Source: a virus
Lineage: Duplodnaviria; Heunggongvirae; Uroviricota; Caudoviricetes
Virus record (IMG/VR): IMGVR_UViG_3300031555_003801
Span: 1-64,000 of that record
Length of the DNA stretch: 64,000 nucleotides
Direction: 5' to 3' (one strand)
Part shown: one piece after another, positions 3,598 to 18,169 of the stretch
Layout: each line of letters opens with the position of its first letter
Position numbering within the stretch: the first letter of the stretch is position 1
The notes under the pieces: model-generated
Seen by the model: the letters and a program-made list of their open reading frames with translations, nothing else
Databases searched by the model: none
Told to the model about the DNA's origin: nothing
Program-made: the position numbers and the translations under genes

Positions 3598-3598
3598 T

Positions 3599-3674: not shown

Positions 3675-3771
3675 ACGGGCAGAAGTGTAGCAAATATGTG
3701 GCTGCCAAGAGAAGAAAACAAACCACGATGTGCGGGCAGTTGGGGACCTAACCCTAGCTGTAATTTAATAA

Positions 3772-3836
3772 AAAGATGCTAACAGCGATCTTAATGCAAG
3801 CATGCAAATCCTTCCAAGATTTAATAATAGCATCTT
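3772..3836 (+). repeat. Hairpin-flanked element 'h': AAAGATGCTA / TAGCATCTT inverted repeat with ACAGCGA after the left arm
   Basis: Variant member of the ACAGCAAA hairpin family. Confidence 0.4.
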
Positions 3837-3864
3837 GTATTTTCTTCCAAAAGGAGGAAAAAAA

Positions 3865-4146
3865 ATGTAGAATGAGATTTTAAATTTCATTAAACGACGT
3901 TGGAGTATTGACGCAAATTGGACTAATGGAAATTGTTTATGGTTTGCCAAAATTCTTCAATTACGCTTTCCGCAAATTCAAATATATTACCTTCCAATTA
4001 TAGGTCATTTTATTGTTTCTGATGGAGAAAATTACTATGATTGGAATGGAATTTATCTTCCAGAAGAAGAACCAATTAATTGGGAGGAATTGCGGAAAAG
4101 CGATTTTTTATGGGCTGAACGATTGATAAGAGATTGTTGGCTCTGA
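3865..4146 (+). CDS. Small hypothetical protein (93 aa) whose second codon is TAG (ATG TAG AAT...)
   Basis: Strong RBS AAGGAGGA 3851-3858. Reading frame M*NEILNFIKRRWSIDANWTNGNCLWFAKILQ...RDCWL with stop TGA 4144-4146. Confidence 0.4.
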
Positions 4147-4149
4147 TAT

Positions 4150-4235
4150 AGGTGGGCGGCAGAGTTGGAGAGCTGCGCCGGACTGTAAATCCGGTGCCTC
4201 AGGCTGAGTGGGTTCGAATCCCACCCCACCTACCA
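4150..4235 (+). tRNA. tRNA-Tyr (anticodon GTA), class II (long variable arm)
   Basis: Acceptor aggtggg/cccacct. Anticodon arm ccgga-ctGTAaa-tccgg. Variable arm tgcctcaggctgag. T arm gtggg-ttcgaat-cccac. CCA present. Confidence 0.75.
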
Positions 4236-4374
4236 TATATGTCATTTGCGCAATGACCTCGTTGGGAGAAAGGTCCCTCACGTTCAATACGAGAAACATA
4301 GCGGCCTCTATACTTTTCGCTTATCCGTTCTCTTCGTATATGCAGAAAGGCTATAAAAAGTTGAACATAATATA

Positions 4375-4448
4375 CCCTTAGTAGTCTAGTGGTAGGACGA
4401 CAGATTGTGATTCTGTTTGCGGCAGTTCAATTCTGCCCTAGGGGACCA
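4375..4448 (+). tRNA. tRNA-His (anticodon GTG)
   Basis: Acceptor cccttag/ctagggg. D arm gtc-tagtggtag-gac. Anticodon arm acaga-ttGTGat-tctgt. T arm ggcag-ttcaatt-ctgcc. CCA present. Confidence 0.7.
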
Positions 4449-4453
4449 ATATG

Positions 4454-4533
4454 TAGGCACATGTACCAAGGCTGGCGACGGAGTCTCCAAAATTCCGTGT
4501 GGTGGGTTCGATTCCCAACTGTCTATGCCAAAA
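4454..4533 (+). tRNA. tRNA-like sequence (canonical T arm and 3' CCA, unresolved D/anticodon arms)
   Basis: T arm tggg-ttcgatt-ccca followed by tgtctat-g-cca. Possible acceptor partner gtaggca. The anticodon region cggagtctccaaaattccg has an over-long loop. Confidence 0.3.
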
Positions 4534-4549
4534 AATAAAAATCAAAAAT

Positions 4550-4578
4550 TTGATTTTTATAAAAAAATATTGTATAAT
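4550..4578 (+). promoter_or_regulatory. sigma70-like promoter TTGATT-N17-TATAAT
   Basis: ttgatt 4550-4555, tataat 4573-4578 (ttgTATAAT). Confidence 0.55.
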
Positions 4579-4725
4579 ATATATACAATAAAAAAATAAA
4601 TAAAAATACTGAAAAAACTTGGATCCCATAAGTTGATTTAGTAAAGTGAGGGAATGGGTATAGGCCTCCGCTTTTAAAATGGCATTGAAAAATATGTACT
4701 GCTAAATCTTAGGTATTTTTTATAT

Positions 4726-4800
4726 GGTTTATTAGTTCATCGGTTAGAATGCCGGTTTGTCAGGCCGGAGAGGCGGGTTCGATTCCCGCATAAACCGCCA
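4726..4800 (+). tRNA. tRNA-Asp (anticodon GTC)
   Basis: Acceptor ggtttat/ataaacc. Anticodon arm ccggt-ttGTCag-gccgg. T arm gcggg-ttcgatt-cccgc. CCA present. Confidence 0.75.
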
Positions 4801-5043
4801 ATTTGCCCAATTAAATCTTGTATGGAGATTATAGTGGCTTTGGTCGGCCTCGGACCTAAGTAATGGCGATGAGGATATTTTTGAGATTGATTGGTATGCT
4901 CTTCACAGGTTTAGAAGAAACTAAAGATTGCGTATTACCCCCGGACGGTTAAGATTTTCAGATAAGGGTTAAGTTAGGTAAGAAAATCAATTGCATGCAA
5001 GGGTTTCATCATTTCCCTCACTGCGGTGGAAAAATGATAAATG

Positions 5044-5100
5044 ACTCACTATGTAAAAGAACCTTCTCGTGGTGTGAGTTGATTTCGACAGATACTTTTA
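5044..5100 (+). repeat. Diverged copy 3 of the ~55-nt structured element: stem GTAAAAG/CTTTTAC around AACCTTCTCGTGGTGTGAGTTGATTTCGACAGATA
   Basis: Core conserved with copies at 2897 and 10812. The outer stem sequence is different but still complementary (covariation). Confidence 0.45.
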
Positions 5101-5706
5101 CAAAAAAATAAATGCTAAATAACTCAGTGCTAAACTGTATCTCGCAGATATGGCTGAGGTATGCGGAAAATGGTCGGCAGAAAACGAAGCAGGGATACCT
5201 GTTGATACTGGCCCGCTGGTTCTAAGGTGACGAAGTTCCAGAAGAGGAGAGAACTCCCAAACGAAACGCATAGCATTTCATATATCGCAAATAAAAGCAG
5301 TAAGCGAATGGGCGAGGCAATAGAAAGCTCTGTGAATAGCGGAGCCGAATCCAAGTTAGGGTTTAGCTGGTGACTGTATCAATCCTTGGAAATACCAACA
5401 ACTCGTTTGGCCGTGAAGCAGAGAAATCTGTGTATAACATTTGCGCGCAACGTCCGAGTAGGTCAAGGCTATATTGCAATTCAAATTTTTGAAAGTTCTT
5501 ATTTGTTGTAGAAGAATTAACAAGAAATTTACTGAATTGTGGCTGAAAGGTGTGGGTAATCAATCCCGCATAGGACATTGGCTTTTAAAGCTGGGTTAAA
5601 AAAGTCACTGGGGTAGCTCCCCTAGGCTCAGATTTAACTCCCTATTGGCTGAATATATTTGAAGATATGTGACGTAGAACGAAGGTTCATTTAGCATTTT
5701 TTTTAT

Positions 5707-5780
5707 GCGGTATTGGTGTAGAGGTAACATAAGAGCCTTCCAAGCTTGGGTCGCGGGTTCGATTCCCGCATACCGCTCCA
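5707..5780 (+). tRNA. tRNA-Gly (anticodon TCC)
   Basis: Acceptor gcggtat/ataccgc. Anticodon arm agagc-ctTCCaa-gcttg. T arm gcggg-ttcgatt-cccgc. CCA present. Confidence 0.65.
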
Positions 5781-5784
5781 TTAT

Positions 5785-5858
5785 GTGCTAGATTCTTTGC
5801 GGCGAGGAAGTGGTCTGCAAAACCATCAGAGTTGGTTCGACTCCAACCTAGCACTCCA
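5785..5858 (+). tRNA. tRNA-Cys (anticodon GCA)
   Basis: Acceptor gtgctag/ctagcac is perfect. Anticodon arm gtggt-ctGCAaa-accat. T arm gttgg-ttcgact-ccaac. CCA present. Confidence 0.7.
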
Positions 5859-5934
5859 AAAATAATTTGCCGGCATGGCGCAATGGTAGCGCAGGACATT
5901 TGTAATGTCAAGGCTGGGGGTTCAAGTCCCTCTG
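5859..5934 (+). tRNA. tRNA-Thr (anticodon TGT)
   Basis: Acceptor gccggca/tgccggc. D arm gcgc-aatggta-gcgc. Anticodon arm ggaca-ttTGTaa-tgtca. T arm ggggg-ttcaagt-ccctc. CCA present. Confidence 0.7.
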
Positions 5935-6087
5935 CCGGCTCCACTTCGCAGGATGATACTTGCGACAATAACTAATTAGATAACTTCTATCCTCTTTGGG
6001 AATGTTATTTGTGGATAGTCGTATAATAAACATTCCAATTATATAAAATGCCGAATTGGCCATCTGATTCGGCATTTATAAAAATGA

Positions 6088-6164
6088 TGCGGGGTAGACC
6101 AGTGGCTAAGTCGTTAGGCTCATAACCTAAAAATCGAGGGTTCGAGTCCCTCCCGCCGCAACCA
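6088..6164 (+). tRNA. tRNA-Met/fMet/Ile2-type (anticodon CAT)
   Basis: Anticodon arm ttagg-ctCATaa-cctaa is perfect. T arm gaggg-ttcgagt-ccctc. Acceptor tgcgggg/cgccgca has 1 mismatch. CCA present. Confidence 0.6.
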
Positions 6165-6180
6165 GTTAAAAAATCATAAT

Positions 6181-6209
6181 TTGAAAATTTAAAAAAATTA
6201 TGATATAAT
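6181..6209 (+). promoter_or_regulatory. sigma70-like promoter TTGAAA-N17-TATAAT
   Basis: ttgaaa 6181-6186, tataat 6204-6209 (tgaTATAAT). Lies upstream of hairpin element 'c'. Confidence 0.6.
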
Positions 6210-6263
6210 ATTTATATAATAAAAATTTTTAGGCATATACAGCAAATTGGTTTTTTCTTACAA

Positions 6264-6340
6264 ATAGTCTGCAAAACTAATGGTTGTTGGTTCGAGTCCA
6301 ACCTTGAGATTTTATCTCAAGTAGCTCAATTGGGAGAGCT
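6264..6340 (+). tRNA. Candidate circularly permuted tRNA-Cys (anticodon GCA): anticodon arm, T arm and acceptor 3' strand are followed by a 5-nt loop and then the acceptor 5' strand and D arm
   Basis: Anticodon arm atagt-ctGCAaa-actaa (6264-6280). T arm gttgg-ttcgagt-ccaac (6286-6302). Acceptor 3' cttgaga (6303-6309). Loop t+ttta. Acceptor 5' tctcaag (6315-6321) is the exact reverse complement. D arm gctc-aattggga-gagc (6324-6339). Leader ttctta (6255-6260) pairs with trailer taagaa (6344-6349), bringing positions 26/27 together. ACAGCAAA at 6239-6246. Confidence 0.5.
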
Positions 6341-6366
6341 TAATAAGAATATGTGTCTAGAATTAT

Positions 6367-6441
6367 TGGGGGGTGGCGCAATGGCGGCGCGGGTGGCTGT
6401 TAACCACAAGGCTGCGGGTTCGAGTCCCGCCCTCCCAGCCA
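6367..6441 (+). tRNA. tRNA-Asn (anticodon GTT)
   Basis: Acceptor tgggggg/cctccca (1 G-U). Anticodon loop ctGTTaa. T arm gcggg-ttcgagt-cccgc. CCA present. Confidence 0.7.
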
Positions 6442-6445
6442 TTAT

Positions 6446-6522
6446 GGTTCTATAGTGTAATAGGTAAACACATCAGGTTTTCAACCTGAAAAGTCTGGGT
6501 TCGATCCCCAGTAGAATCACCA
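6446..6522 (+). tRNA. tRNA-Glu (anticodon TTC)
   Basis: Acceptor ggttcta/tagaatc. D arm gtgt-aataggtaa-acac. Anticodon arm tcagg-ttTTCaa-cctga. T arm ctggg-ttcgatc-cccag. CCA present. Confidence 0.75.
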
Positions 6523-6789
6523 GGAAAACAATAATTAAAGAAATTGACAAAGGGAAGCCTTTTAAGAGAAAGTACCTGTACTATCTCGGATTAGCGGTTT
6601 ATTGTACCATAGTATACGGGTTTAGGTCGCCGCCATTGACGGGTCGCATAAGCGTCTATAAATAAAAGGTGTGCGTCTTGGTTTGGTAGTAAAATACGAT
6701 AGTCCATGTAGCGTAAGCGAAGTATAAACTACCACTATGAGTTGATAAATAATATGCTTGTTGTTTATCAGCTCTATTTTTTTCTCTTT

Positions 6790-6877
6790 GGAGGAGTACT
6801 CAAGTGGTTAAGAGGGCAGTTTGCTAAACTGTTAGGGTGTAACAGCCGCGTGGGTTCGAACCCCACCTCCTCCGCCA
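6790..6877 (+). tRNA. tRNA-Ser (anticodon GCT), class II
   Basis: Acceptor ggaggag/ctcctcc is perfect. Anticodon arm gcagt-ttGCTaa-actgt. Long variable arm. T arm gtggg-ttcgaac-cccac. CCA present. Confidence 0.75.
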
Positions 6878-6888
6878 AAAATCTTAAT

Positions 6889-6917
6889 TTGAAAAATTTA
6901 AAAAAATATGATATAAT
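6889..6917 (+). promoter_or_regulatory. sigma70-like promoter TTGAAA-N17-TATAAT
   Basis: ttgaaa 6889-6894, tataat 6912-6917. Immediately followed by hairpin element 'd'. Confidence 0.6.
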
Positions 6918-6926
6918 ATTTATATA

Positions 6927-7000
6927 AAGATGGTTACAGCAAATATTTTGATATAACACATTTAATTAGGGATTAAAAGCGTATTATAATAAACCATCTT
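6927..7000 (+). repeat. Hairpin-flanked element 'd': AAGATGGTT / AACCATCTT with ACAGCAAA (6936-6943)
   Basis: 9-bp inverted repeat. It starts about 10 nt downstream of the -10 element and ends 8 nt before the split tRNA. Confidence 0.5.
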
Positions 7001-7007
7001 GCATTAT

Positions 7008-7572
7008 GTCCCATTAGCTCAGTAGGCTAGAGCACGTGACTTTTTAGACTCATGTAGATTGACAATTACTCAAAGAGGTGAAAAAATATGTTGAGTAGTC
7101 ATTTTATAGGAGAAATTACAGAACAGCAAGTGGCAGTTGAATTCTTAAAATTAGGTATTTTAGTTTCGAAGCCATTAGTACAAAGTTCGAAGTATGATTT
7201 TATAGCGGATATAAATCATAAACTTTATAAAATTCAAGTAAAAACTGGAACTTATAAAGAAGATGCTTATTTAGAATTTGCTACAAGTACAAGTCATACA
7301 AATACTAAAGGAACATTAAATCTTTCTTATTCAGAAGATGATGTTGATTTCTTTGCTACAATGCATGAAGGACAATGTTATTTAGTTCCTTATCATCTTT
7401 GTGGTAAAAGAATCCAAAGAATAAGATTTGTTCCAACTAAAAATGGACAAACAAAAGGAATTTTGTTTGCGAAAGATTTTCATTTAGAGGATATAGTAAA
7501 AACTTTGTAATTGTCATTCTGAAGGACTAAAAAATCACGGTGTCCGCAGTTCGAGTCTGCGATGGGACACCA
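7008..7572 (+). tRNA. tRNA gene (probably tRNA-Lys TTT) split in the anticodon loop by a ~490-bp ORF-containing insertion (intron-like)
   Basis: 5' exon: acceptor gtcccat (7008-7014), D arm gctc-agtaggcta-gagc, anticodon-stem strand cgtga (7035-7039). 3' exon: tcacg (7535-7539, exact complement), variable gtgtc, T arm cgcag-ttcgagt-ctgcg, acceptor atgggac (exact complement) + a + CCA (7562-7572). The insertion's ends pair into an extended rod (tttttag/ctaaaaa and tgacaattac/gtaattgtca). Confidence 0.55.
7088..7510 (+). CDS. ORF inside the tRNA insertion: PD-(D/E)XK-like nuclease candidate (possible homing endonuclease)
   Basis: 140 aa. Motif YDFIADINHKLYKIQVKT resembles D...(E/Q)xK. RBS AAAGAGGTG upstream. 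A PD-(D/E)XK homing endonuclease in a tRNA-fMet group I intron (I-Ssp6803I) is a precedent. Confidence 0.45.
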   Translation: MLSSHFIGEITEQQVAVEFLKLGILVSKPLVQSSKYDFIADINHKLYKIQVKTGTYKEDAYLEFATSTSHTNTKGTLNLSYSEDDVDFFATMHEGQCYLVPYHLCGKRIQRIRFVPTKNGQTKGILFAKDFHLEDIVKTL

Positions 7573-7711
7573 TTTATTAGTCCACTATGTGGATCAACAG
7601 CGTTAACATGGATTTGTAAGTTAAACTACCACCGACGGAATTCTATGAATGAAGGTATGTGGCTTAGTGGCAAACGCTATATAAGAAGGCAAAGTAAACT
7701 TACTATAATAT

Positions 7712-7788
7712 GTCCCTGTAATCCAACAGGTAGAGATAGTGGACTTAAAATCCATCCAGTGTGAGTTCGAATCTCACCAGGGACACCA
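7712..7788 (+). tRNA. tRNA with anticodon TAA (Leu-type anticodon) but class I architecture (5-nt variable loop)
   Basis: Acceptor gtccctg/cagggac is perfect. Anticodon arm gtgga-ctTAAaa-tccat. T arm gtgag-ttcgaat-ctcac. Discriminator A. CCA present. Confidence 0.5.
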
Positions 7789-7793
7789 AATAT

Positions 7794-7870
7794 GTCCCAT
7801 TAGCCCAATTGGCAGAGGCGTCTGACTTAGGATCAGATCAGTGCAGGTTCGAATCCTGTGTGGGGCACCA
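7794..7870 (+). tRNA. tRNA with anticodon TAG (Leu CUN-type anticodon) but class I architecture
   Basis: Acceptor gtcccat/gtggggc (2 G-U). Anticodon arm tctga-ctTAGga-tcaga is perfect. T arm gcagg-ttcgaat-cctgt. CCA present. Confidence 0.55.
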
Positions 7871-7876
7871 TTTAAA

Positions 7877-7971
7877 AAGACGCTAGAATACAGCAATTAT
7901 TTTAGGTTAATAGAATTTTGTTGAAGAAGATTTTTAGATGGTTCGAATCCATCACAAGAACCTAGCGTCTT
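7877..7971 (+). repeat. Hairpin-flanked element 'g': AAGACGCTAG / CTAGCGTCTT (10 bp) with ACAGCAA; encloses an orphan tRNA 3' half (T arm gatgg-ttcgaat-ccatc + acaagaa)
   Basis: The inverted repeat, the motif and the T-arm-like segment are all visible in the sequence. No matching 5' half was found. Confidence 0.45.
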
Positions 7972-8098
7972 GTTTTGATTTATTCTGTTACTTAAATTGA
8001 GCGGATGTAGCCGAATTGGTATAGATACATGATTCTAGAGATTTGAATTATTTTACCTATAAATAATAATATTATTAGTTTAAAAGAATATAAATAAA

Positions 8099-8947
8099 AT
8101 GGAATTAATTGATTTTACAAAAGAGATAAATAATGCTTAGTTATTTGTAGGTTCTGGTAAAAAGAAAAAATTATTAATTAATTATAACAATGAATAGTAT
8201 ATAATTAAATTTGCTAAAAATATATGTACAAATAATCAAGGTATTATTACAAATTAGAGAGGCTTTTCAGAATATTTAGCTTGTCAAATTTATCAAAATG
8301 CAGAATTTTTTGTTTAGGAAACTTTATTAGGTTATTATAAAAATAAAAATAATATTTTAACTGCTTGTAAACTTGCAAATAATAAAATTACAGATTTTAG
8401 TTTTTTTATGGAAAAATATGATTATAAAGTAAGTAATAAATTAAATGATATTTTATTAGTTTGTAAATATATTAATATAGAAGAATACTTTTGGGATATG
8501 TTTATTATAGATGCTTTTATTGGTAATACAGATCGTAATACTGGTAATTGGGGATTATTTTATAATGAAAAATTAGATAAAATATTAAGCGTTCCTTTTA
8601 TTTTTGACTGTGAAAATAGTTTTTATCCCAATATGAATGATTATATTTTATAGAATTATTGTCAAAAAGAATTAAAAGAAATAGCTTATAATTATCCAGA
8701 ATCAAAAATAATTTATAATAATAAAAATATAAATTATTTTAATTTTATTTCTTCTTTAGAGAATGAAGATTGTAATGAAGCTTTAAAAAGAATTGTTCCT
8801 AAAATTGATATAGAAAAAATTATTTAGATTATAAATGATCTTCCACTTGAAAAAATATAGAAAAATTTTTTAATAACAATTCTTCAAAAAAGAAAAGAAT
8901 TATTAAATCTTGTTTTAATAAAACTTAATGAAAGAGAAAACCAATGA
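8099..8947 (+). CDS. HipA-like (HipA/CtkA kinase family, divergent catalytic motif) protein with 7 in-frame TAG codons
   Basis: VGSGKKKKL (P-loop-like) and FIIDAFIGNTDRNTGNWG (HipA C-terminal motif region, with D-R-N in place of D-x-H). Same frame as ORF-track fragment 8408..8653. Overlaps the E1 start (ATGA). Confidence 0.5.
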
Positions 8948-9675
8948 TTAGATATAAAGAAAATATTGATGAATTTAATTTAACAGAAAAAATTCAAAAT
9001 CAATTATTAACAAAAAATATTGCAGTAATTGGTTGTGGCGGACAAGGTGGATATACTTTAGAATTTCTTATTCGATTAGGAATTAAATCTATTATTTTTT
9101 GGGATGGAGATTATTTTGAAGAATCTAATCTTAATAGACAAATAGGCTGTTTAATTCCAACGTTACAAAAAAACAAAGCTTTATCTATGAAAGAAAGGCT
9201 TCAACAAATTAATCCAGAAGTAGAATTAATTTGTTGTGATTGGTATTTTGGAGATAAAGAAGATGATAAAGAGAAACTATCTAAAGTAGATTTTATTTTT
9301 GATGCTGCAGATTGTAATTATAATATTTTTAAATTAAGAACAATTTTAAGAGAAGTCATTATTGAATATAATATTCCTATTATTCGTTTCCCTATAAATA
9401 TATTAGGAGGTTATGTTCATATTGAAACTATGAAAGATTTAAGCCATTTTGATTTTATTACGCATAGATTAATTTATCAAAATAAAAATGAAAAAATTTT
9501 TCCAGAAGCAGTAAGTCAACCCGCTTATAAATGTGCAATTATTGCGGGCGAAGCTGTAAATCAAATGGTTCAATATTTTTCTAATTGTAGATATGCGGCT
9601 ATTGATACAACTTTAAATATTGATCTTTATCATCATAAATATGTTGAAGAAGATAGATTTGGAATTATTCCATAA
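8944..9675 (+). CDS. ThiF/MoeB/E1-like adenylyltransferase
   Basis: Rossmann motif IAVIGCGGQGGY. Signature FEESNLNRQ. 243 aa. Confidence 0.75.
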   Translation: MIRYKENIDEFNLTEKIQNQLLTKNIAVIGCGGQGGYTLEFLIRLGIKSIIFWDGDYFEESNLNRQIGCLIPTLQKNKALSMKERLQQINPEVELICCDWYFGDKEDDKEKLSKVDFIFDAADCNYNIFKLRTILREVIIEYNIPIIRFPINILGGYVHIETMKDLSHFDFITHRLIYQNKNEKIFPEAVSQPAYKCAIIAGEAVNQMVQYFSNCRYAAIDTTLNIDLYHHKYVEEDRFGIIP

Positions 9676-9678
9676 TTT

Positions 9679-9759
9679 GGGGACATAGCTCAGTTGGTGA
9701 GAGCGCAGAGCTTATACCTCTGGAATCTGTCGAAGGTTCAAGTCCTTCTGTCCCTACCA
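9679..9759 (+). tRNA. tRNA-Ile (anticodon TAT), 9-nt variable loop
   Basis: Acceptor ggggaca/tgtccct. D arm gctc-agttggtga-gagc. Anticodon arm cagag-ctTATac-ctctg. T arm gaagg-ttcaagt-ccttc. CCA present. Confidence 0.55.
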
Positions 9760-9766
9760 TTTTTAT

Positions 9767-9839
9767 TAGACACAAACAGCAAAATATTTTATGTCAAGCA
9801 AGGAACTTTTAATTCTTATAATAGCTAATAAAGTGTCTA
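9767..9839 (+). repeat. Hairpin-flanked element 'e': TAGACAC / GTGTCTA with ACAGCAAA (9776-9783)
   Basis: Inverted repeat enclosing ~57 nt with no tRNA. Lies between tRNA-Ile(TAT) and tRNA-Ile(GAT). Confidence 0.5.
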
Positions 9840-9846
9840 GAAAATA

Positions 9847-9923
9847 TTGAGAAGTAGCTCAGATGGTTAGAGCGCAGGTCTGATAAACCTGAGGTCGTGA
9901 GTTCAATTCTCACCTTCTCAACC
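9847..9923 (+). tRNA. tRNA-Ile (anticodon GAT), second copy
   Basis: Acceptor tgagaag/cttctca is perfect. D arm gctc-agatggtta-gagc. Anticodon arm caggt-ctGATaa-acctg. T arm gtgag-ttcaatt-ctcac. CCA present. Confidence 0.75.
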
Positions 9924-9932
9924 ATATTAATA

Positions 9933-10009
9933 TCTGGGTATAGCTCAGTTTGGCAGAGCGCCTGATTTGGGTTCAGGAGGCCGCAAGTTCGAATCTTGCT
10001 ACTCAGACC
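9933..10009 (+). tRNA. tRNA-Pro (anticodon TGG), canonical copy
   Basis: Acceptor ctgggta/tactcag. D arm gctc-agtttggca-gagc. Anticodon arm cctga-ttTGGgt-tcagg. T arm gcaag-ttcgaat-cttgc. CCA present. Confidence 0.75.
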
Positions 10010-10325
10010 AGTCCACCGTTTATGTTTTCCTTTCCTACTTTTGGAACATAAGAATAAGGTGGAGAAAGTAGGGCCGCTTAACCGGTTTATATTTATTAGT
10101 AGGCTGCAGAGCCATGTGTATATAGTATTTTTAAATCTCGCAAAAGTCTCACGATATGTTAAGATATCGCGCTGCTGTAATATGTGAATAATGTGAGTAC
10201 GCAATTTTATAAATGAGTATCGGCCTTGGTGTGGATGTTGATGGAGAGGCGACACGGAGCTCTACTTCGTATCTTTGGTGTCAGAGGTTAATTGTCTAAA
10301 ATCGAGAAAATTTATAAAATTATGT

Positions 10326-10420
10326 GGAGGCGTACCGAAGTGGCTATAACGGCGCAGACTTGAAATCTGTTGTGTCAGCTAGTACCTGACGCGGGGGTTC
10401 AAATCCTCCCGCCTCCGCCA
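10326..10420 (+). tRNA. tRNA-Ser (anticodon TGA), class II
   Basis: Acceptor ggaggcg/cgcctcc is perfect. Anticodon arm gcaga-ctTGAaa-tctgt. Long variable arm. T arm ggggg-ttcaaat-cctcc. CCA present. Confidence 0.75.
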
Positions 10421-10463: not shown

Positions 10464-10813
10464 CGGGGCTGAAAATGGTTTCGACAGGGTTGTGAAAAAT
10501 TTTAAATCCGCAGGTGTGATTTACCTTACAAATCAAACTTAAATATAAACGCAAAACCTTATAGATTAGCTGCCTAATTAATTGGTAGGCCTAAACGACA
10601 TGCTTGTTGTTCAGCTAAATGTCTGCGGCTCGAGGAATAGAACAATCACCCCAAAGTTTCTTAATTCTTTTTCAAAAATTAAGTGGTGGATACGATGTTT
10701 GTAAAGTGTCTTTACAAAACCCTGAGTTGGTTATCTCTAAAATAACCTATTGCGTAAGTATGATTTAAAATTAGTAACAGTTTTGGACGCGAGTTCGACT
10801 CTCGCCAGCTCCA
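10464..10813 (+). ncRNA. ssrA: tmRNA (ssrA-like transfer-messenger RNA)
   Basis: 5' end GGGGCTGAAAATGGTTTCGACAGGG (tmRNA tRNA-like domain). 3' end ggacgcgag-ttcgact-ctcgc-cagctcc-a (T arm + acceptor pairing with GGGGCTG). Internal tag-like reading frame GCA AAA CCT TAT AGA TTA GCT GCC TAA (…AKPYRLAA*) ending in the typical LAA + TAA. Confidence 0.65.
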
Positions 10814-11052: not shown

Positions 11053-11061
11053 AGTATTAAA

Positions 11062-11151
11062 GCTCCGTAGTCTAATGGTAAAACGCCGGACTCTAAATCC
11101 GTTATACTCTCTGAAAGGGTAATCTGGGTTCGAATCCCAGCGGGGCCGCCA
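11062..11151 (+). tRNA. Amber suppressor tRNA (anticodon CTA, reads UAG), class II with long variable arm
   Basis: Anticodon arm (c)cgga-ctCTAaa-tccg(t) with U33 and A37. Variable stem tactct/agggta. T arm ctggg-ttcgaat-cccag. Acceptor agctccg/cggggcc (1 A-C at 1-72) + g + CCA. The D arm is irregular. Confidence 0.6.
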
Positions 11152-11160: not shown

Positions 11161-11193
11161 AGCCAGTTTATATTTTTATAAACTGGCTTTTTG
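11161..11193 (+). terminator. Rho-independent terminator closing the tRNA array
   Basis: agccagtttata-ttttt-ataaactggct followed by tttt. Confidence 0.7.
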
Positions 11194-11201
11194 TTATTTA
11201 T

Positions 11202-11230
11202 TTGAAAAAAATTAAAAAATATGATATAAT
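11202..11230 (+). promoter_or_regulatory. sigma70-like promoter TTGAAA-N17-TATAAT
   Basis: ttgaaa 11202-11207, tataat 11225-11230 (tgaTATAAT). Confidence 0.6.
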
Positions 11231-11264: not shown

Positions 11265-12230
11265 ATGGAATTAATTGACTTTACGAAAGCAATAAATAAT
11301 GCTTAGTTATTTAAACCTACTGGTAACAATAAAAAAAAATTAAAAATTATTTATAATAATGAAGAATATATAATAAAAACTTCAAAATATACAATTGAAC
11401 AAGATAAAGAAAATAAATATAAAATGATTGAATTGTATAATACAATATCGGAATATTTAGGTTGTAAAATTTATGATAGTTTAAATATACCTGCACAAAA
11501 AACTTTATTAGGATATTATTAGTATAAAAATAAAAAACAAATGATAATTGCTTGTAAAAATTTTAATATTGATGATAGTTTTCTTCCTTTTGGTATATTC
11601 TTTAATAAAGAACGACAACAAGATAATAATAAATTGCAATCTTTAGAAATAAAAAATATTATAAAAAAAATTGAAGAACAAAATATTTATGATTCTCAAA
11701 AAATAAAAAAACGTTTTTGGGATATGTTTATTATTGATGCTTTTATTGATAATCCCGATAGAACTTCTGGAAACTGGGGTTTTATAAAAGATAAAAAAAC
11801 AAATACAATCATAAATTTTTGTCCAATTTTTGATTGTGAATAGAACATATTTTTAGAAATACTATTAAAAAATAAAAAACAATTATTAAATAATTAGAAT
11901 AAAATAAATTTTTTAGCTATATCGCCTTTTAAAAAATCTTATTTAATTTATGATAATAAAGTTATAAATTATTTTAATTTTATTTCCTCTTTAGAAAATG
12001 AAGATTGTAATGAAGCTTTAAAAAGAATTGTTCCTAAAATTGATATGGAAAAAATTATTTAGATTATAAATGATCTTCCACTTGAAGAATTCCAAAAAAA
12101 TAATTTAATAATAGTATTAAAAAAAAGAAAAGAATTATTATTAGATTTTCCTTTATTTCTCTTACAAAATATAGATAAAAGAGAAAAATACGAAAAAAAA
12201 ATAGAAAGGATAATATATGATAAATTATAA
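11265..12230 (+). CDS. HipA-like paralog with 5 in-frame TAG codons
   Basis: MELIDFTKAINNA*... FIIDAFIDNPDRTSGNWG. Same frame as ORF-track fragment 11541..11843. Its C-terminal ~125 bp is a near-exact direct repeat of the 3' end of 8099..8947. Stop TAA at 12228-12230 overlaps the ycaO start. Confidence 0.5.
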
Positions 12231-14007
12231 AAATCATTATAAAGAACGAAAACCAGAGGAAACAATAAAAATTATAGAAAACTTTTTTTTAAATCTCAAT
12301 ATGAAAATTAAAAGAAATGAAGTTATGATTAGTGAAATAAATACTTATTCAATACAAATAATATTATTTGATAAAAATGATTTTTTAATTTTATACGCTA
12401 ATGGTAAAGGTGAAACAGAAGAATTTGCAATTGCCTCTGCTTATGGCGAATTATATGAACGTTTCTGTAATATGAGATTTATTATGAAAGATGGTATTGC
12501 TCAAAATTTATTTTTACAAAAAAGAAAACAAAAATATAATTATTATTATCATCCAGAAGAAAAAGAATTTTCTTTAATAGAATTAATTAATGCCGATCAA
12601 AATTTTCATAATTTTTTCTTAGGAGATTTTTCTGAAAAAGATTCTGATATTATTAATTTTTATAATACACTTTTTAATAATAAATTTATTGCTGCGCCTT
12701 ATCAAGATTTATTAGATTCAAATAAACAATATTTTTATAACCCATATTTAATGACAGTGTTAAGAGGATCTGGCGGAATGGCTGCTGGAAATACATTAGA
12801 AGAAGCTTTAAATCAAGGCATTTCAGAACTTTACGAACATTATATTACAGATAAATTTCGTTATTTAAAAAAAGATTTTGATTTTCATTTTATAGATATT
12901 TCAACTATTAAAAACCAAAAATTAAAAGAAAAGATAAAATTATTAACAGATAATGAAAACTATGAATATTATTTAATTGATTTTTCTTATAATTTTAATG
13001 TACCTGTTTTATTATCTATTTTAATTGATAAAACTTTACAAAGATTTTTTATTAATTTTGGTTCTTTTCCTATTTTTGATATTGCTTTAGAAAGAACATT
13101 AACAGAATTATATCAAGGAGTTGTTTCTTTTAAAGAAGAAGAACAATCAAATAATATTATTGTTCCTTATAAAAGTGGAGTAACTATTATAGAAGCTTTA
13201 GACGCTACAGCAAATGTCACTAATTCTCTTTGTTTAAATGAAAGTTTTTTATTAAGTGAAAAAAAATTTTATTCCCCTAATTCAAAAATATTTTTATTTA
13301 ATCAGGATAAAAATTATTCAAATGAAGATATATTAAATTATTATAAAAAATTATCTTCTTATTTAAATATTAATTTTTGTTATTTAGATGTATCTCAATC
13401 TTCTGAAATGCATGCTATACAAATTTATAGTATAAATTTACCTCATTTCTCGTTACCTTTGGAAGCAAAAAAAATGCTTTACAAAAAACAACAATTAAAT
13501 GTTTATAAATTATTATCATATTTTATTCAGTTAGAAAATAAATGGCTAAATAATCATATATGGGATAATTTATTATGGGAAAAAATAATAATTTTATATA
13601 ATCAATTTACTATTGAAGATATTTTATTGTTTAATATTAGTGCCTCTATATTTTGTTTTAATTTTAGTAAAACTAATAATCTTTTATCATTAATTGAACA
13701 ATTTATAAAAATGGATTCAAATATTTATATGATTGAAGAACAAATTATTGCTATGTCTAATAAATCAATTCTTTCAGAAGATATTAAAAAATTCTTAACT
13801 CAATATAGGTATATTGTTAATAATGATTATCTTCCAAGTGAAAAAACTAAAATATTAAAAACTTTAATACCAGAATTTTCACAAGATGAAACATTATTTA
13901 AAAATATTATTACTCCAGAATATTTCTTACAAGTAATAATGGAAAAATTATATGAATATTATCATAGTGAAAAATATTCTGATTATCTTGATGCTTTAGT
14001 TGGATAA
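12217..14007 (+). CDS. YcaO-domain protein
   Basis: ANGKGETEEFAIASAYGELYERF matches the YcaO ATP-binding/cyclodehydratase signature. 596 aa. No TAG codons. Confidence 0.7.
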   Translation: MINYKNHYKERKPEETIKIIENFFLNLNMKIKRNEVMISEINTYSIQIILFDKNDFLILYANGKGETEEFAIASAYGELYERFCNMRFIMKDGIAQNLFLQKRKQKYNYYYHPEEKEFSLIELINADQNFHNFFLGDFSEKDSDIINFYNTLFNNKFIAAPYQDLLDSNKQYFYNPYLMTVLRGSGGMAAGNTLEEALNQGISELYEHYITDKFRYLKKDFDFHFIDISTIKNQKLKEKIKLLTDNENYEYYLIDFSYNFNVPVLLSILIDKTLQRFFINFGSFPIFDIALERTLTELYQGVVSFKEEEQSNNIIVPYKSGVTIIEALDATANVTNSLCLNESFLLSEKKFYSPNSKIFLFNQDKNYSNEDILNYYKKLSSYLNINFCYLDVSQSSEMHAIQIYSINLPHFSLPLEAKKMLYKKQQLNVYKLLSYFIQLENKWLNNHIWDNLLWEKIIILYNQFTIEDILLFNISASIFCFNFSKTNNLLSLIEQFIKMDSNIYMIEEQIIAMSNKSILSEDIKKFLTQYRYIVNNDYLPSEKTKILKTLIPEFSQDETLFKNIITPEYFLQVIMEKLYEYYHSEKYSDYLDALVG

Positions 14008-14153: not shown

Positions 14154-15710
14154 ATGAATAAGTTTTTAAATGGATTAACTGATGCAACTAACTTCACTTA
14201 CACTGAAAATGGTGCTATTACCCATAAAACTACTAAGTCTGCTCTGTTAGATATGTTCGCACTTGGTGGAGCATATAGAACTAGAAGTGACGCAGAAGTA
14301 ATCACCTTATTTAAGAACGCATATGAGGAAAATCCTGTTTATGCGTTAAAGTGCCTGTTCTATCTGCGCGACGTGCGTGGCGGACAGGGTGAAAGAAGAT
14401 TTTTCAAAACTGCAATGAAGTGGTTTGCTAATGCTGATGTAGAAGCAGCAAGAAGAAATTTCAAGCATATTCCAGAGTTTGGTAGATGGGATGATTTATA
14501 TCTTTTCATTAATACGCCTCTTGAAAATGAAATGTTCCAGTTTATGAAGGAACAGTTAGCACTCGATATGCAGTGCAAAACACCTTCTCTGTTAGCAAAG
14601 TGGTTAAAGTCTGAAAATACATCTTCTATGGAATCCAGATATCTGGCTAAGAAGACTCGTCAGTATTTTGGCATGACCGCAAAGCAGTATAGAAAGACAT
14701 TATCTATCCTCCGTGAAAGAATTAATGTTCTTGAAAGATTAATGTCTGCAGGTAAGTGGGATGAAATCGAGTTCGATAAGATTCCTTCTAAGGCAGGTTT
14801 AATTTATAAGAATGCTTTTGCTAGACACGATATCGAAAGAATGAAGACTGAAAAGGCTGTAGTATCTTATGCGGATTTCGCTAAGGATGTAACTACAACT
14901 GTAAATGCTAAGGCATTATATCCATATGAAGTAGTAGCTAAGGCTATTGATTTAATGGGATATAATGGTGGTTGGTTCCGTAGCACTCATGATGTTCCAT
15001 TAGATAATACTGATAGACTTATGATTAATAAATATTGGAATAATCTCGCTGATTATATCCAGGGTGCTAATTTTAATGGAATTGCAGTGGTAGATACTTC
15101 TGGTTCTATGACTGGTTCTTTTGCTAGTGCACCAATTAATGTAGCTGTTTCTCTTGGCATGTATTGTGCTGAAAAAAATAATGGTCCATTCAAAGATCAC
15201 TTCATTACATTTGAATCTAATCCTCATTTAATTAAGGTTGAAGGCGTAGACTTTTGCGAAAAGGTTTATAATATTACTGGCGCAGACTGGGGTGGTTCTA
15301 CAAATATTGAAGCAGTGTTTGACTTATTATTAGATACTGCTATCAGAAATAATTGTTCTCAGGATGAAATTCCACAGAATGTAATTGTTATTTCTGATAT
15401 GGAGTTTAACTCTTGTGTAACTTTTAATAGCTTACTTGCAAGAAGATATTATAATGAACCTATGTTTAATACTGAAACTTTATTCGAAACCATGGAACGC
15501 AAATGGAATAGAGCAGGATATCAGATGCCTGCAATTACATTCTGGAATGTTCAGGCAAGACAGAATAATATTCCAATGAAGACTGAAGGTAGAGTAAATT
15601 ATGTATCTGGTATGTCTCCAGTAATCTATGAACAGGTTATGAAAGGTTTAAGTGCTTACGATCTGATGATGGATAAGTTAGATAATGAAAGATATAGCGT
15701 AATTTGCTAA
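14154..15710 (+). CDS. vWA (MIDAS) domain protein with large N-terminal helical domain (Ro60/TROVE-like architecture possible)
   Basis: MIDAS motif VVDTSGSMTG. 518 aa. Clearly higher GC and different codon usage than flanking phage genes. Confidence 0.55.
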   Translation: MNKFLNGLTDATNFTYTENGAITHKTTKSALLDMFALGGAYRTRSDAEVITLFKNAYEENPVYALKCLFYLRDVRGGQGERRFFKTAMKWFANADVEAARRNFKHIPEFGRWDDLYLFINTPLENEMFQFMKEQLALDMQCKTPSLLAKWLKSENTSSMESRYLAKKTRQYFGMTAKQYRKTLSILRERINVLERLMSAGKWDEIEFDKIPSKAGLIYKNAFARHDIERMKTEKAVVSYADFAKDVTTTVNAKALYPYEVVAKAIDLMGYNGGWFRSTHDVPLDNTDRLMINKYWNNLADYIQGANFNGIAVVDTSGSMTGSFASAPINVAVSLGMYCAEKNNGPFKDHFITFESNPHLIKVEGVDFCEKVYNITGADWGGSTNIEAVFDLLLDTAIRNNCSQDEIPQNVIVISDMEFNSCVTFNSLLARRYYNEPMFNTETLFETMERKWNRAGYQMPAITFWNVQARQNNIPMKTEGRVNYVSGMSPVIYEQVMKGLSAYDLMMDKLDNERYSVIC

Positions 15711-15723
15711 TTCAAAAAATAAA

Positions 15724-15756
15724 AGGCGGGGTAAAAATACTCCGCCTTTATTTTTT
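15724..15756 (+). terminator. Rho-independent terminator
   Basis: ggcggggtaaaaatactccgcc + ttta-ttttttt. Confidence 0.7.
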
Positions 15757-15947
15757 TCAAAAAATATGATATAATATTATATAATAAAAAATAAGGAGTG
15801 ATATCATGATTCATGTATTAGTGATAGCTTTCTTTTTAAGTTTCTTTATGGCTTGTGTTGTTGAAAATGATGAAATGCCAAAAGAAGAAAAATATCGCTG
15901 GTTCGCAGTTATAGTAGGATTAATAGTTTATGTTTATTTAACTGCAT

Positions 15948-16751
15948 TTGTTTTATAAGAAAGGATTTTTAATGAAATATTTTATTGATTTTGAAGCCAA
16001 TAGTCCGACGAATGAAATCATTGAAATAGGTTGCGTTTCTGAAAAAAATGATTGTTTTAAAATGTATGTTAAACCAACTACACCTATTGACCCATTTATT
16101 ACGGGATTAACGCATATTACAAATAAAATGGTAGAAGATTCTCCTTTAATTGATGAAGCAATTATGATTTTTTATAATTGGCTTATCAATACGCAGGAAC
16201 ATTTTTCTTGGAAAGATACTACTTTTTATTGCTATGGAAATGCGGATCATTCATTTATTCAGGCTTCAGCACAAACTTGCGAAACAACTGATTCTTATAT
16301 GATTCTTGCGGCTATGGCTATGTCTTTGAAAGATTTTACCAAGAAAGTAAATCATTTCTTTAAAGATAGTATTTCTTTAATCCAGGCATTAAATTATTTT
16401 AAAACCTCGGAAACAGCTTGGGAGCAGTGTCATGATGCTCTTGAGGATGCGCTAGCTTTAAAAGAATTATATAAAGTTTTACCAAAAAAATATTCATTAC
16501 CTTGTTCTCCATTTGTTATTAAAACAGAAATGGGTGTTAGAAGAAATAAAAAAGGTTATGGATATACTGATTATATTAGTTTAACAGAAGCTACTGAATG
16601 TGTTGTAAAAGAAATATTAACAACATCACCAAATTCTAATGTTAAATCTGAAAATATTAGAAAAAGAATTATTCATGCTATTAATAAGAAAAGTTCTTAT
16701 ATGGGATATAAATGGAAATATGTAAAGATTGAGAAAGGGGATGAAGAATAA
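15948..16751 (+). CDS. DEDDh-family 3'-5' exonuclease (DnaQ/RNase T-like)
   Basis: Exo I motif FIDFEANSP..EIIEIG. Exo III motif HDALEDALAL. The true start is probably the internal Met at MKYFIDFE. Confidence 0.65.
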   Translation: MFYKKGFLMKYFIDFEANSPTNEIIEIGCVSEKNDCFKMYVKPTTPIDPFITGLTHITNKMVEDSPLIDEAIMIFYNWLINTQEHFSWKDTTFYCYGNADHSFIQASAQTCETTDSYMILAAMAMSLKDFTKKVNHFFKDSISLIQALNYFKTSETAWEQCHDALEDALALKELYKVLPKKYSLPCSPFVIKTEMGVRRNKKGYGYTDYISLTEATECVVKEILTTSPNSNVKSENIRKRIIHAINKKSSYMGYKWKYVKIEKGDEE

Positions 16752-18169
16752 TGTATTAGGCATATGTAACTAAATTAAAAAATGTGCGGCCGCACCCTAA
16801 TGCTGATAGAATGCTTTTAGCAGACTGTTTCGGCAATACTGTTTGTGTAGGCCTTGACGCGCAAGAGGAAGATGTAATTCTCTATTTTCCAACAGATGGA
16901 CAATTATCTAAAGAATATGCGGAAATCAATAATCTTATAAGAATCAAGAATGAAGATGGAACATATTCCGGTGGATATTTAGACCCAGATAAAAGAAACA
17001 TCAAAGCAATTAAATTAAGAGGTGAAAAATCTGATGGTTTAGTAATGCCACTAGAATCCCTTTCTTCTTTTGGAGATATTTCTACTTTAAATATTGGAAA
17101 TACAATTAATGTCTTTAATGGACATGAAATTTGTAAAAAGTATATTCCAAGAGAAAATCCAATGAAGGTGCGCGCTGGCGGTAATAAGACCCGCAAGACC
17201 AAGCGCCTAATTGCTCCTTTATTCAAAGAACATGCTGATACTGAACAATTAGCATATAATCTTGATGCTTTCAAAGCGGGAGATGAAATTGAAATCACAT
17301 TAAAGATGCATGGAACTTCTCAAAGAACTGCTTACTTACCAAAATTAATTGGTTATAAAAGATCTATTTTAGATAGACTCTTAAAGAGAGAAGGAACTCC
17401 AATCTATGATTGGGGCTATGTGTCTGGAACTCGTAGAACTGTTGTAGATGATTTTGAAAATAGAACAACTTCTTTCTATGGTAGTGATGCATTTAGAGAA
17501 CCGCATGCAAAAATGTTTGAAGGAAAGCTTTATAAGGGTGAAACTGTTTATTATGAAGTTGTTGGTTTTACCGATAATGGAACTCCTATTATGGGTTCTT
17601 GTGATAATAGAAAAACTCAAGATAAAGAGTTTATTAAGAAATATGGTGAAGTGACTACTTTCTCTTATGGTTGTGACTGTGCGGAACAAGCATGGAGAGA
17701 AAATAGAGGACAAGATCCAGACAAACCTCAGTCTGACATTTATGTATATCGAATGACAATGACTAATGAAGATGGTTATGTAATGGAATTAACTCCTGAT
17801 TATATGAGATATAGATGCGAGCAGATGGGTGTAAAGACAGTGCCTGTTATGTGGAAAGGATACATTCCTTATACAGTAGATGACATTGATTCTACTATTC
17901 CTGGTCACAGAATTATACTTAGAGAAGGGGAAAATGCTGGAGACTGGGTTAAGAGTGTAGCAGAACAGTATTACGATGGACCTGACCCAATTGGTAGAAC
18001 CCATGTGCGGGAAGGTGTAGTTGTAAGAATTATAAATAGACCAAAATTTGCAGCATATAAGCATAAAAACTTTAGCTTCAAAGTTCTCGAAGGAATTGTC
18101 AAAGCGGATGCATTAATGCCAGATATGGAAGAAGCACAGGAGACTATTGATGAAAGTTCAGAGATTTGA
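16751..18169 (+). CDS. ATP-dependent RNA ligase (Rnl2/Rnl5-like, nucleotidyltransferase motif I KMHGTS) with N-terminal OB-like domain; codon 3 is TAG
   Basis: ATG TAT TAG at 16751-16759 joins onto ORF-track frame 16784..18169. LKMHGTSQR resembles the KxHG(T/S)N motif I of the Rnl2 family. GC-richer than the surroundings. Confidence 0.55.

Follow-up and report, generated by a model that had tools for sequence, protein, structure and literature searches.

A complete tmRNA gene beside an amber suppressor tRNA in a probable TAG-recoded gut phage

INTRODUCTION

Transfer-messenger RNA (tmRNA) genes have been described in several phages, among them the mycobacteriophages Bxz1, Catera and Wildcat (PMC1475703) and phage G (PMC12484599). 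Huge phages carry tmRNA as well, some of them together with SmpB (PMC7162821), and the tmRNA database holds viral entries in addition to a DS6A form that has no coding sequence (PMC11915505). Here we analyzed a tmRNA gene that lies at positions 10465–10813 of a 64,000-nt stretch of DNA (the window; positions 1 to 64,000 of the IMG/VR record IMGVR_UViG_3300031555_003801), within a tRNA array and next to an amber suppressor tRNA. We put the probability at about 0.8 that this gene would be a functional one-piece tmRNA that carries out ordinary trans-translation and provides extra ribosome-rescue capacity in infection. Phage tmRNAs are already known, and the adjacency to an amber suppressor in a recoded phage is a modest novelty.

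RESULTS

The window encodes a full-length one-piece tmRNA

ARAGORN called a one-piece tmRNA of 349 nt at 10465–10813 on the plus strand of the 64-kb window, with the tag AKPYRLAA followed by a stop. A Rfam search of the whole window matched the same gene to the tmRNA model RF00023 with 102.6 bits against a gathering score of 47 (E = 5.7e-39), which places the match far beyond chance, and the alignment ran end to end over model positions 1–374 of 374. A local Rfam search found the same gene with E = 2.4e-40.

The original prediction, made from the letters of the window, had placed a tmRNA at 10464–10813. The call of a tmRNA was borne out by both programs, each of which reports a full-length gene; the predicted end is right, and the true start lies one base later, at 10465. 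The predicted readings of the 5' end (GGGGCTGAAAATGGTTTCGACAGGG) and the 3' end (GGACGCGAGTTCGACTCTCGCCAGCTCCA) agree with the letters of the window, and so does the internal frame ending in AKPYRLAA-TAA, on which ARAGORN and the sequence coincide. It had further named the model score relative to its threshold and the pseudoknot-rich middle domain as the features by which to judge the call: the score is twice the RF00023 threshold, and the middle domain is present, with compensatory changes.

The gene is AU-rich (37% G+C), no open reading frame (ORF) of at least 80 aa overlaps it, and its last base is the discriminator A at 10813. The 3' CCA is not encoded, as CTCCA is followed by GGC; the seeming CCA of this gene in the table of array ends consists of the last acceptor bases and the discriminator. 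Addition of CCA after transcription is common. At the sequence level, the gene at 10465–10813 is thus confirmed as a complete tmRNA, in which every one-piece feature that was tested is present, bar an encoded 3' CCA.

Homologous phage contigs reveal selection on the gene

Homologues were reached by walking outward from two neighboring proteins, a YcaO protein and a DUF2828 protein. The first, on the 8-kb Logan contig L008, lies at 1145–1502 in a stretch whose YcaO protein is 41% identical to that of the window; the gene order there is tRNA-Ile, tRNA-Ile, tRNA-Pro, tRNA-Ser(UGA), tmRNA and a 91-nt CUA tRNA. The second, on the 11.9-kb Logan contig L171, lies at 1045–1394, accompanied by a DUF2828 protein that is 88% identical. 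As in the window, the L171 tmRNA directly follows tRNA-Ser(UGA), which is thus a neighbor common to L008 and L171. The L171 copy resembles that of the window in its 3' end and does not encode CCA; the L008 copy does (CTCCACCA). Seven contig look-ups were made for closer DUF2828 relatives, and six of these contigs were too short upstream to judge the tmRNA.

Among the three phage contigs the tmRNAs are 86–92% identical. The spacers just 3' of the gene are 54–63% identical, and those on the 5' side (44, 349 and 11 nt) are unrelated; the adjoining YcaO protein reaches no more than 41% identity. Gene positions 284–349 are identical in all three homologues. We compared the three sequences on a hand-built model of 97 pairs, in which 97.6% of the cells hold standard pairs; when the 3' partners were slid by 1–3 columns as a control, 29–53% of the cells paired. 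Both-sided changes were found at 7 pairs, a number reached in 0 of 500 shuffles, and the slid controls showed none. A hand count with the register corrected around two indels, which excludes the three pairs of pseudoknot 4 (PK4) stem 1, gave 94 pairs, of which 81 are invariant, 8 compensatory (58:66, 110:120, 133:159, 140:149, 142:182, 147:177, 200:215 and 234:254), 1 changed on one side and 4 broken in one sequence. The helix P5, PK2 stem 2, PK3 stem 2, the hairpin Hb and PK4 stem 2 had been predicted by RNAalifold from two sequences before the third was available, and the third sequence brought fresh compensatory changes in P5, PK2 and Hb. These comparisons indicate that the tmRNA gene is under purifying selection.

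The same data bear on the idea that the phage merely took along a host ssrA with its tRNA genes, as a passenger or decaying copy without function for the phage. Most relatives examined have no tmRNA, the array is a mosaic in which ROOL, RNase P RNA or tmRNA occurs in different relatives, and CCA is encoded in just one copy out of three, all of which would fit such a passenger. We nevertheless consider it improbable: the gene is a conserved island amid diverged spacers, substitutions in its helices keep the pairing except at four pairs (7–8 are compensatory), all copies (3/3) retain an undamaged tRNA-like domain and tag frame, and no bacterial species representative matches the 5' end or the combination of ends. 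A decaying pseudogene in particular was rejected on the conserved island, the kept pairing and the intact tag frame.

No bacterial donor was found among sequenced lineages

We searched 185,579 GTDB species representatives with two strict patterns, one for the 5' end and one for both ends together, and obtained 0 matches; no donor was found, and the gene is therefore not a recent capture from a sequenced lineage. In IMG/VR, the 5'-end pattern and a back-translated tag pattern had no matches. The exact 3'-end pattern had a sole match there, L001, which was set aside as an unrelated permuted tmRNA. At least 120 metagenomic bacterial-type tmRNAs share the motifs of the tRNA-like domain and their spacing, and among the matches listed none is alike beyond that domain and ~50 nt around the tag; the contig of the window was itself not among these matches. 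GenBank phages gave no match either to the tmRNA (blastn) or to 24 kb of the window (megablast).

As tmRNA genes are common integration sites (PMC11915505), the locus might be an ssrA-derived part of a phage attachment site (attP) that rebuilds the host gene after integration. Among the matches listed, 119 IMG/VR loci carry the tmRNA 3' signature; 82 of them gave full tmRNA calls, and the other 37 show the 3'-fragment pattern that such mimics would leave. The gene studied here is full-length, however, and has a 5' end, a tag and pseudoknots of its own; the window yielded no integrase, and no bacterial species representative matches the gene, so that we hold an integration-site mimic to be extremely improbable. 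An attP fragment as such was rejected on the full-length gene and on the lack of any integrase family in the window.

The RNA folds into the elements of a bacterial-type tmRNA

The elements of the gene are as follows, with gene positions counted from 10465.

10465–10485, plus strand: 5' half of the tRNA-like domain, with acceptor GGGGCUG and D-loop analogue AAAAUGGUUUCGAC
10485–10511, plus strand: 5' strands of P2a (gene 21–29), P2b (34–44) and P2c (45–47)
10512–10535, plus strand: PK1 (gene 48–71)
10551–10577, plus strand: tag frame, GCA AAA CCT TAT AGA TTA GCT GCC TAA
10566–10594, plus strand: P5 helix (gene 102–110 with 120–130), from RNAalifold
10597–10646, plus strand: PK2 (gene 133–182)
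10653–10683, plus strand: PK3 (gene 189–219)
10698–10718, plus strand: hairpin Hb, between PK3 and PK4 (gene 234–241 with 247–254)
10724–10747, plus strand: PK4, a candidate (gene 260–283)
10752–10813, plus strand: 3' strands of P2c, P2b and P2a, T arm, acceptor CAGCUCC and discriminator A

The acceptor stem has 7 bp (GGGGCUG/CAGCUCC, that is GC, GC, GU, GC, CG, UA and GC), all invariant in 3/3 homologues. It contains the alanine identity pair G3:U70 (G3 with U346 of the gene) and is followed by A as discriminator. The D-loop analogue AAAAUGGUUUCGAC takes the place of a D arm, an anticodon arm is absent, and the T arm, GCGAG-UUCGACU-CUCGC, forms a 5-bp stem with a 7-nt loop. The connector P2 (gene 21–47 with 288–321) joins this domain to the pseudoknot ring; 22 of its 23 pairs are invariant and one is broken in L008, so that, with no covariation, P2 draws its support from conservation and the model match.

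PK1 consists of a 4-bp stem 1 (AGGU/ACCU, gene 48–51 with 59–62) and a 6-bp stem 2 (UGAUUU/AAAUCA, 53–58 with 66–71), in which pair 58:66 changes from U-A to C-G in L008. The first three loop bases of P5 are the UAA stop of the tag; in L171, pair 110:120 of this helix changes from C-G to U-A and pair 108:122 from G-U to G-C. PK2 pairs gene 133–140 with 149–159 (stem 1) and 142–148 with 176–182 (stem 2), with compensatory changes at 133:159 and 140:149 in stem 1 and at 142:182 and 147:177 in stem 2. Those of stem 1 were confirmed by the tool count; MAFFT aligned stem 2 off register, and its changes are from the hand count.

PK3 stem 1 (AAAG/CUUU, 189–192 with 203–206) is conserved without covariation, and in stem 2 (CUUAAUU/AAUUAAG, 196–202 with 213–219) pair 200:215 changes from A-U to G-C in L008. 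In Hb, L171 has A-U for U-A at 234:254, and one pair is broken. PK4 would consist of stem 1 (GAG/CUC, 260–262 with 271–273) and stem 2 (GGUUAU/AUAACC, 265–270 with 278–283); stem 1 is GAG/CUC in two sequences and AAAGG/CCUUU in L008, where the sequence differs and the pairing is kept, and the tool count found one both-sided change in PK4. PK4 is a candidate and the weakest of the four pseudoknots, and PK4 and Hb are the least certain elements.

A short basic tag is conserved

The tag frame opens on the resume codon GCA and reads AKPYRLAA up to TAA, with no in-frame TAG. The original prediction had pointed out that the stop is TAA and not the recoded TAG, which is correct and yet uninformative, since UAA ends the tag in most tmRNAs. 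Upstream of the resume codon the RNA reads ...AUAUAAAC, ending in UAAAC, with U at -5 and A at -4, an arrangement that Williams et al. are said to have described in 1999 for E. coli. In L008 and L171 the tag is AKSYRLAA. The tag frames of the three copies differ by one non-synonymous change (Pro/Ser) and two synonymous ones, and for one of the latter, GCC to GCU, P5 shows a compensating change on its other strand.

At 8 residues and a net charge of +2, AKPYRLAA is short and basic. Among the matches listed, bacterial tmRNAs whose tRNA-like domain is similar have mostly acidic or neutral tags of 9–15 residues (ANDNFELAAA, ANDNLAYAA, ADNKLAYAA). Tags ending in RLAA and tags of 7–8 residues are also present in other bacterial and viral tmRNAs among the matches listed, which makes AKPYRLAA unusual and not unique. 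The C-terminal LAA is a ClpX determinant in E. coli.

The tag raises the possibility of a competitor RNA that vies for host SmpB and attaches a short basic tag so as to alter the fate of proteins, either by dodging host adaptors or by leading them to a phage ClpP-family protease. The difference from the mostly acidic or neutral bacterial tags would suit this idea. So would a Clp-protease-family protein encoded at 38794–39417 on the plus strand (Pfam CLP_protease, 91 bits), and there is a precedent in the DS6A tmRNA-like RNA without coding sequence, which inhibits host tmRNA according to the work as cited in PMC11915505. We find such re-targeting quite improbable, given that the C-terminal LAA is retained, that RLAA endings and 7–8-residue tags also occur in bacterial and viral tmRNAs, and that the Clp-family protein has its best PHROG matches among head-maturation proteases. 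The Clp-family gene itself stands between topoisomerase and ligase genes, outside any structural module.

The source is probably a tailed phage of about 190 kb

The window is part of the 188,133-bp contig Ga0307249_10001222 (JGI 3300029305), of which identical copies exist in several other samples. It has 30% G+C, and all credible genes lie on one strand. PHROG families in the window include topoisomerase II subunits, NAD-dependent ligase, a DnaB-like helicase, RecJ and a PolIII-alpha-type polymerase; further genes encode RNase H, ThyX, an anaerobic ribonucleotide reductase and a UvrD-type helicase, and a phage tail lysozyme domain, a Sak4-like annealing protein and GIY-YIG homing endonucleases are encoded as well. 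The DUF2828 protein has at least 36 relatives on IMG/VR viral contigs at 47–66% identity, and YcaO homologues occur on many contigs of 100–220 kb of this phage family; YcaO as an anchor in IMG/VR found no relatives. The DNA polymerase is closest to those of Enterococcus phages and Bacillus SPbeta-type phages (~40% identity). No rRNA or ribosomal protein genes were found in the window.

NCBI files the proteins of the contig under a 'Firmicutes bacterium' metagenome-assembled genome (MAG; locus tag E7167_), and no capsid, portal or terminase genes were found in the 64-kb window, so that the phage assignment draws on gene families, IMG/VR relatives and the polymerase. Both points would fit a piece of some small bacterial or plasmid genome with its own ssrA, and large plasmids may carry translation genes (PMC7162821). 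This is very improbable in our judgment in view of the one-strand genes, the in-frame TAG codons together with a CUA tRNA, the tail lysozyme, head-maturation protease, Sak4 and homing endonucleases, the at least 36 IMG/VR relatives, the clustering of homologous contigs at 100–220 kb, the lack of rRNA and ribosomal protein genes and the polymerase closest to phage ones. A bacterial chromosome was rejected on the phage families, the IMG/VR relatives and the absence of rRNA and ribosomal protein genes. Most likely, the contig is a phage genome that ended up in one bin with contigs from bacteria. The source is probably a tailed gut phage of ~190 kb with a Bacillota (Firmicutes) host.

The tmRNA lies between tRNA-Ser(UGA) and a CUA tRNA

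Upstream of the tmRNA, ARAGORN called 20 tRNA genes at 1863–10420, all on the plus strand. The features around the tmRNA are the following.

10292–10320: weak promoter-like site, 9/12 match in the promoter scan
10326–10420, plus strand: tRNA-Ser(UGA), called by ARAGORN, 44 nt upstream of the tmRNA
11061–11151, plus strand: CUA suppressor tRNA, called by ARAGORN and Rfam, 247 nt downstream of the tmRNA
11161–11198, plus strand: strong intrinsic terminator, a 12-bp stem followed by TTTTTGTTATT
11202–11230: near-consensus promoter of the next gene, 11/12 match

The terminator is directly 3' of the suppressor tRNA and closes the stretch of tRNA-Ser, tmRNA and suppressor. This layout of promoters and terminator suggests that tRNA-Ser(UGA), the tmRNA and the suppressor tRNA are probably co-transcribed.

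Other stable RNAs were seen in the arrays of this phage family. Rfam alone reported an extra tRNA in the window at 3599–3671 on the plus strand (46.9 bits; not called by ARAGORN). A full-length ROOL RNA (RF03087, 337 bits; threshold 99) is encoded at 5099–5707 on the plus strand, directly 5' of tRNA-Gly, and ROOL is found in related phage loci too (L011:14966–15558 and L139:1704–2291). Two relatives of the YcaO-bearing family carry a full-length class A RNase P RNA of bacterial type in their tRNA arrays (L009:4414–4754 and L011:12721–13046, both on the plus strand; 268 and 266 bits, threshold 100), and the window has none. RAGATH-33 (L139:3523–3635) and skipping-rope (L011:15563–15632) RNAs were also found. 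By its content, the array looks like a changeable kit of stable RNAs of host type: tRNAs, suppressor tRNA, tmRNA, RNase P RNA and ROOL.

Between tRNA-Pro and tRNA-Ser lies a spacer of 315 nt (10011–10325, plus strand) that is 82–92% identical in the three contigs, far above the spacers that flank the tmRNA. RNAalifold gave 80 pairs, 4 of them compensatory, with an energy no better than that of shuffled sequences (z = 0.25). The spacer might encode an RNA not yet annotated or hold a conserved element of another kind.

TAG is recoded in the phage

About 16 credible genes of the window contain 1–7 in-frame TAG codons each, and standard-code gene calls split or truncate the TAG-containing genes of the contig. 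Two paralogues, at 8099–8947 and 11265–12230, have one TAG position in common. At the one site tested, in the PhoH-like gene, TAG occupies the Gln position of the GD..Q.D motif, where L156 (60% identical) and L013 have Q. Added together, stop-free frames of 100 codons or more came to 17,511 aa, and to 21,780 aa with TAG readthrough; the TGA control gave a larger total still, 23,119, so that summed frame length alone does not discriminate in favor of TAG.

The suppressor tRNA at 11061–11151 has the anticodon CUA, 91 nt, a variable arm of ~21 nt and 51.2 bits with the Rfam tRNA model; ARAGORN labels it 'tRNA-Pyl (cta)'. It has G73 as discriminator and an unpaired 1:72 (A1/C72 mismatch), which we take to be tRNA-Gln identity features. 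L008 carries the identical 91-nt CUA tRNA. L171 has instead a different, 74-nt CUA tRNA that is 53% identical, with a GIY-YIG gene between the tRNA and the tmRNA. No theta or HDV-like ribozyme was found beside the suppressor tRNA at E up to 1. These findings indicate that TAG is read as Gln in this phage (genetic code 15).

The two TAG-rich paralogues, with 7 TAG codons at 8099–8947 and 5 at 11265–12230 (both on the plus strand), bracket the end of the array including the tmRNA. Their N- and C-terminal stretches are near-identical, and the product of 11265–12230 matches no Pfam family.

A possible link between the tmRNA and recoding

The original prediction had seen a phage-encoded tmRNA inside a tRNA array in a TAG-recoded genome and had connected its function with recoding. 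The setting holds up: 20 tRNA genes precede the tmRNA and a CUA tRNA follows it; phage families, IMG/VR relatives and a phage-like polymerase speak for a phage; and in-frame TAGs stand in intact genes, one of them at the PhoH Gln site. The functional connection itself is suggestive, with evidence both ways.

As a specialization of ordinary ribosome rescue, the tmRNA might be co-expressed with the CUA tRNA to handle side effects of amber suppression. Ribosomes that pass a host or early-phage UAG and reach the 3' end of the mRNA would then be rescued, and the extended proteins degraded. A CUA tRNA adjoins the tmRNA in 3/3 genomes that carry this tmRNA, and in the window tRNA-Ser, tmRNA and suppressor lie in one stretch that a single strong terminator closes. 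From the literature, suppressor tRNAs raise SsrA tagging through readthrough (Ueda et al. 2002, as cited in PMC3985003), and ribosomes stalled at UAG in recoded E. coli are resolved by tmRNA (PMC6207430); both reports support the idea.

Evidence against it came from locus samples that cover ~5–10 kb around each anchor. No tmRNA was present within ~10 kb of the anchor gene at 39 related loci (3 more distant YcaO-bearing relatives and 36 IMG/VR relatives among the matches listed; Rfam confirmed the absence in 7), at least 19 of which have a CUA tRNA. Of the 82 viral tmRNA loci listed, 7 have at least 3 tRNAs nearby and 1 has a suppressor tRNA. In L171 the suppressor is a different, 74-nt tRNA that is parted from the tmRNA by a homing-endonuclease gene, and the adjacency of tmRNA and suppressor could merely reflect a shared location in the array. 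The samples are small in reach, and they weigh against a general rule and not against the case of this phage. A specific role in cleaning up after amber suppression is thus plausible here and not general; as an account of this gene we hold it only tentatively and would not expect it to prevail. It is unlikely, in our estimate, that tRNA-Ser(UGA), tmRNA, tRNA-Sup(CUA) and terminator form a co-regulated code-switch cassette whose tag is perhaps tuned to the phage Clp-family protease or evades host adaptors.

The single listed viral tmRNA locus with a CUA tRNA nearby is the IMG/VR locus L273, which encodes the tag AANDAVWALAA and may present an independent second pairing of tmRNA and amber suppressor.

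Other genes adjoining the array

Two further groups of genes on the plus strand were noted near the array.

14154–18169 and 24131–26575, plus strand: RNA repair and processing neighborhood adjoining the array, with a DUF2828/DUF7788 protein, an RNase T-like exonuclease, an RNA ligase and an AAA_33 kinase
8944–9675, 12217–14007, 20990–23373 and 23342–24028, plus strand: cluster around the array resembling those for ribosomally synthesized and post-translationally modified peptides, with a ThiF-family protein, a YcaO cyclodehydratase-family protein, two radical SAM proteins and a 228-aa protein

In the first group, the DUF2828/DUF7788 protein has the PHROG label 'RNA-binding protein' and 7,979 database proteins at E < 1e-40. 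A metallophosphatase is encoded at 24131–24850, and the ORF at 25922–26575 appears to be a second one by eye alone. In the second, the 228-aa protein has a Cys/Asn-rich C-terminus (…CGYNCSCNYNCGYNCNYNCCNHNCN…).

DISCUSSION

Our results point to a tmRNA that would work in infection much as bacterial tmRNA does. We infer a route that begins with transcription of the tmRNA together with the last tRNAs of the array. RNase P would cut at G10465, the 3' end would be trimmed to A10813, and CCA would be added by the CCA-adding enzyme. Host alanyl-tRNA synthetase would charge the RNA with alanine via G3:U70, and host SmpB and EF-Tu would bring it to ribosomes that have stalled on reaching the 3' end of a broken or stop-less mRNA. 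Translation would resume on GCA, append (A)AKPYRLAA and end at UAA, upon which the ribosome would be freed and the C-terminal LAA would send the product to ClpXP-type proteolysis. Host RNase P, CCA-adding enzyme, alanyl-tRNA synthetase, EF-Tu and SmpB would be used unless the contig supplies some of them from outside the window. The phage would benefit in that ribosomes stay available while host mRNAs decay and while amber suppression pushes translation past host TAG stops.

Several points weigh against a working phage tmRNA of this kind. First, no SmpB was found in the window: the best tblastn match to two SmpB queries had E = 0.4, and Pfam found none in the ~30 window ORFs scanned, a set that leaves out about a dozen ORFs of at least 100 aa. 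Function would therefore depend on compatibility with the SmpB of the host. Second, the covariation comes from three homologues in all, which also partly served to draw the structure. Support is weak for PK3 stem 1 and PK4, a run of four G-U pairs is present in P2a, and the posterior probability of the Rfam alignment is low in the middle domain (average 0.52). Third, CCA-ended tRNA genes are the majority in the array of the window, and the tmRNAs of the window and of L171 lack this ending. To these come the lack of capsid, portal and terminase genes in the window and the filing of the contig under a bacterial MAG.

Ordinary ribosome rescue, taken by itself, would make this another large phage that imports host translation parts, and the gene would be of use in annotation and host prediction. 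It adds a well-supported tmRNA lineage, phage-only so far, that comprises three genomes, has compensatory changes in PK1–PK3 and P5 and was not recently copied from any bacterial ssrA sequenced to date. The side-by-side arrangement of a tmRNA and an amber suppressor in a TAG-recoded phage provides a testable form of the notion that a code switch needs rescue capacity. Were the cassette reading true, ribosome rescue would be built into the way in which a virus imposes another genetic code on a standard-code cell.

Compared with bacterial SsrA (10Sa RNA, RF00023), the gene has in common G3:U70, the A discriminator, the T arm, a long P2, PK1 before GCA, an LAA-ended tag, UAA in P5, three more pseudoknot-type elements and a length of ~350 nt. 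It differs in lying in a phage array, in being AU-rich, in its 8-codon basic tag and in not encoding CCA, and its middle domain has no detectable similarity to those of the 120 listed bacterial tmRNAs that share the tRNA-like-domain motifs. The 3' fragments of ssrA at prophage and island att sites have the same T-arm and acceptor sequence, whereas this gene is complete and divergent, with no integrase adjoining. Like the DS6A RNA, it is phage-encoded and tmRNA-derived; the DS6A RNA has no tag frame and inhibits host tmRNA, whereas this gene keeps a conserved resume codon, tag and stop. Some huge phages encode SmpB, in contrast to the window, in which none was found. With the known phage tmRNAs it shares that they are full genes in large tRNA-rich phages with a presumed role in ribosome rescue during infection, and it is set apart from them by a likely Bacillota host, a TAG-recoded genome and a place beside an amber suppressor tRNA.

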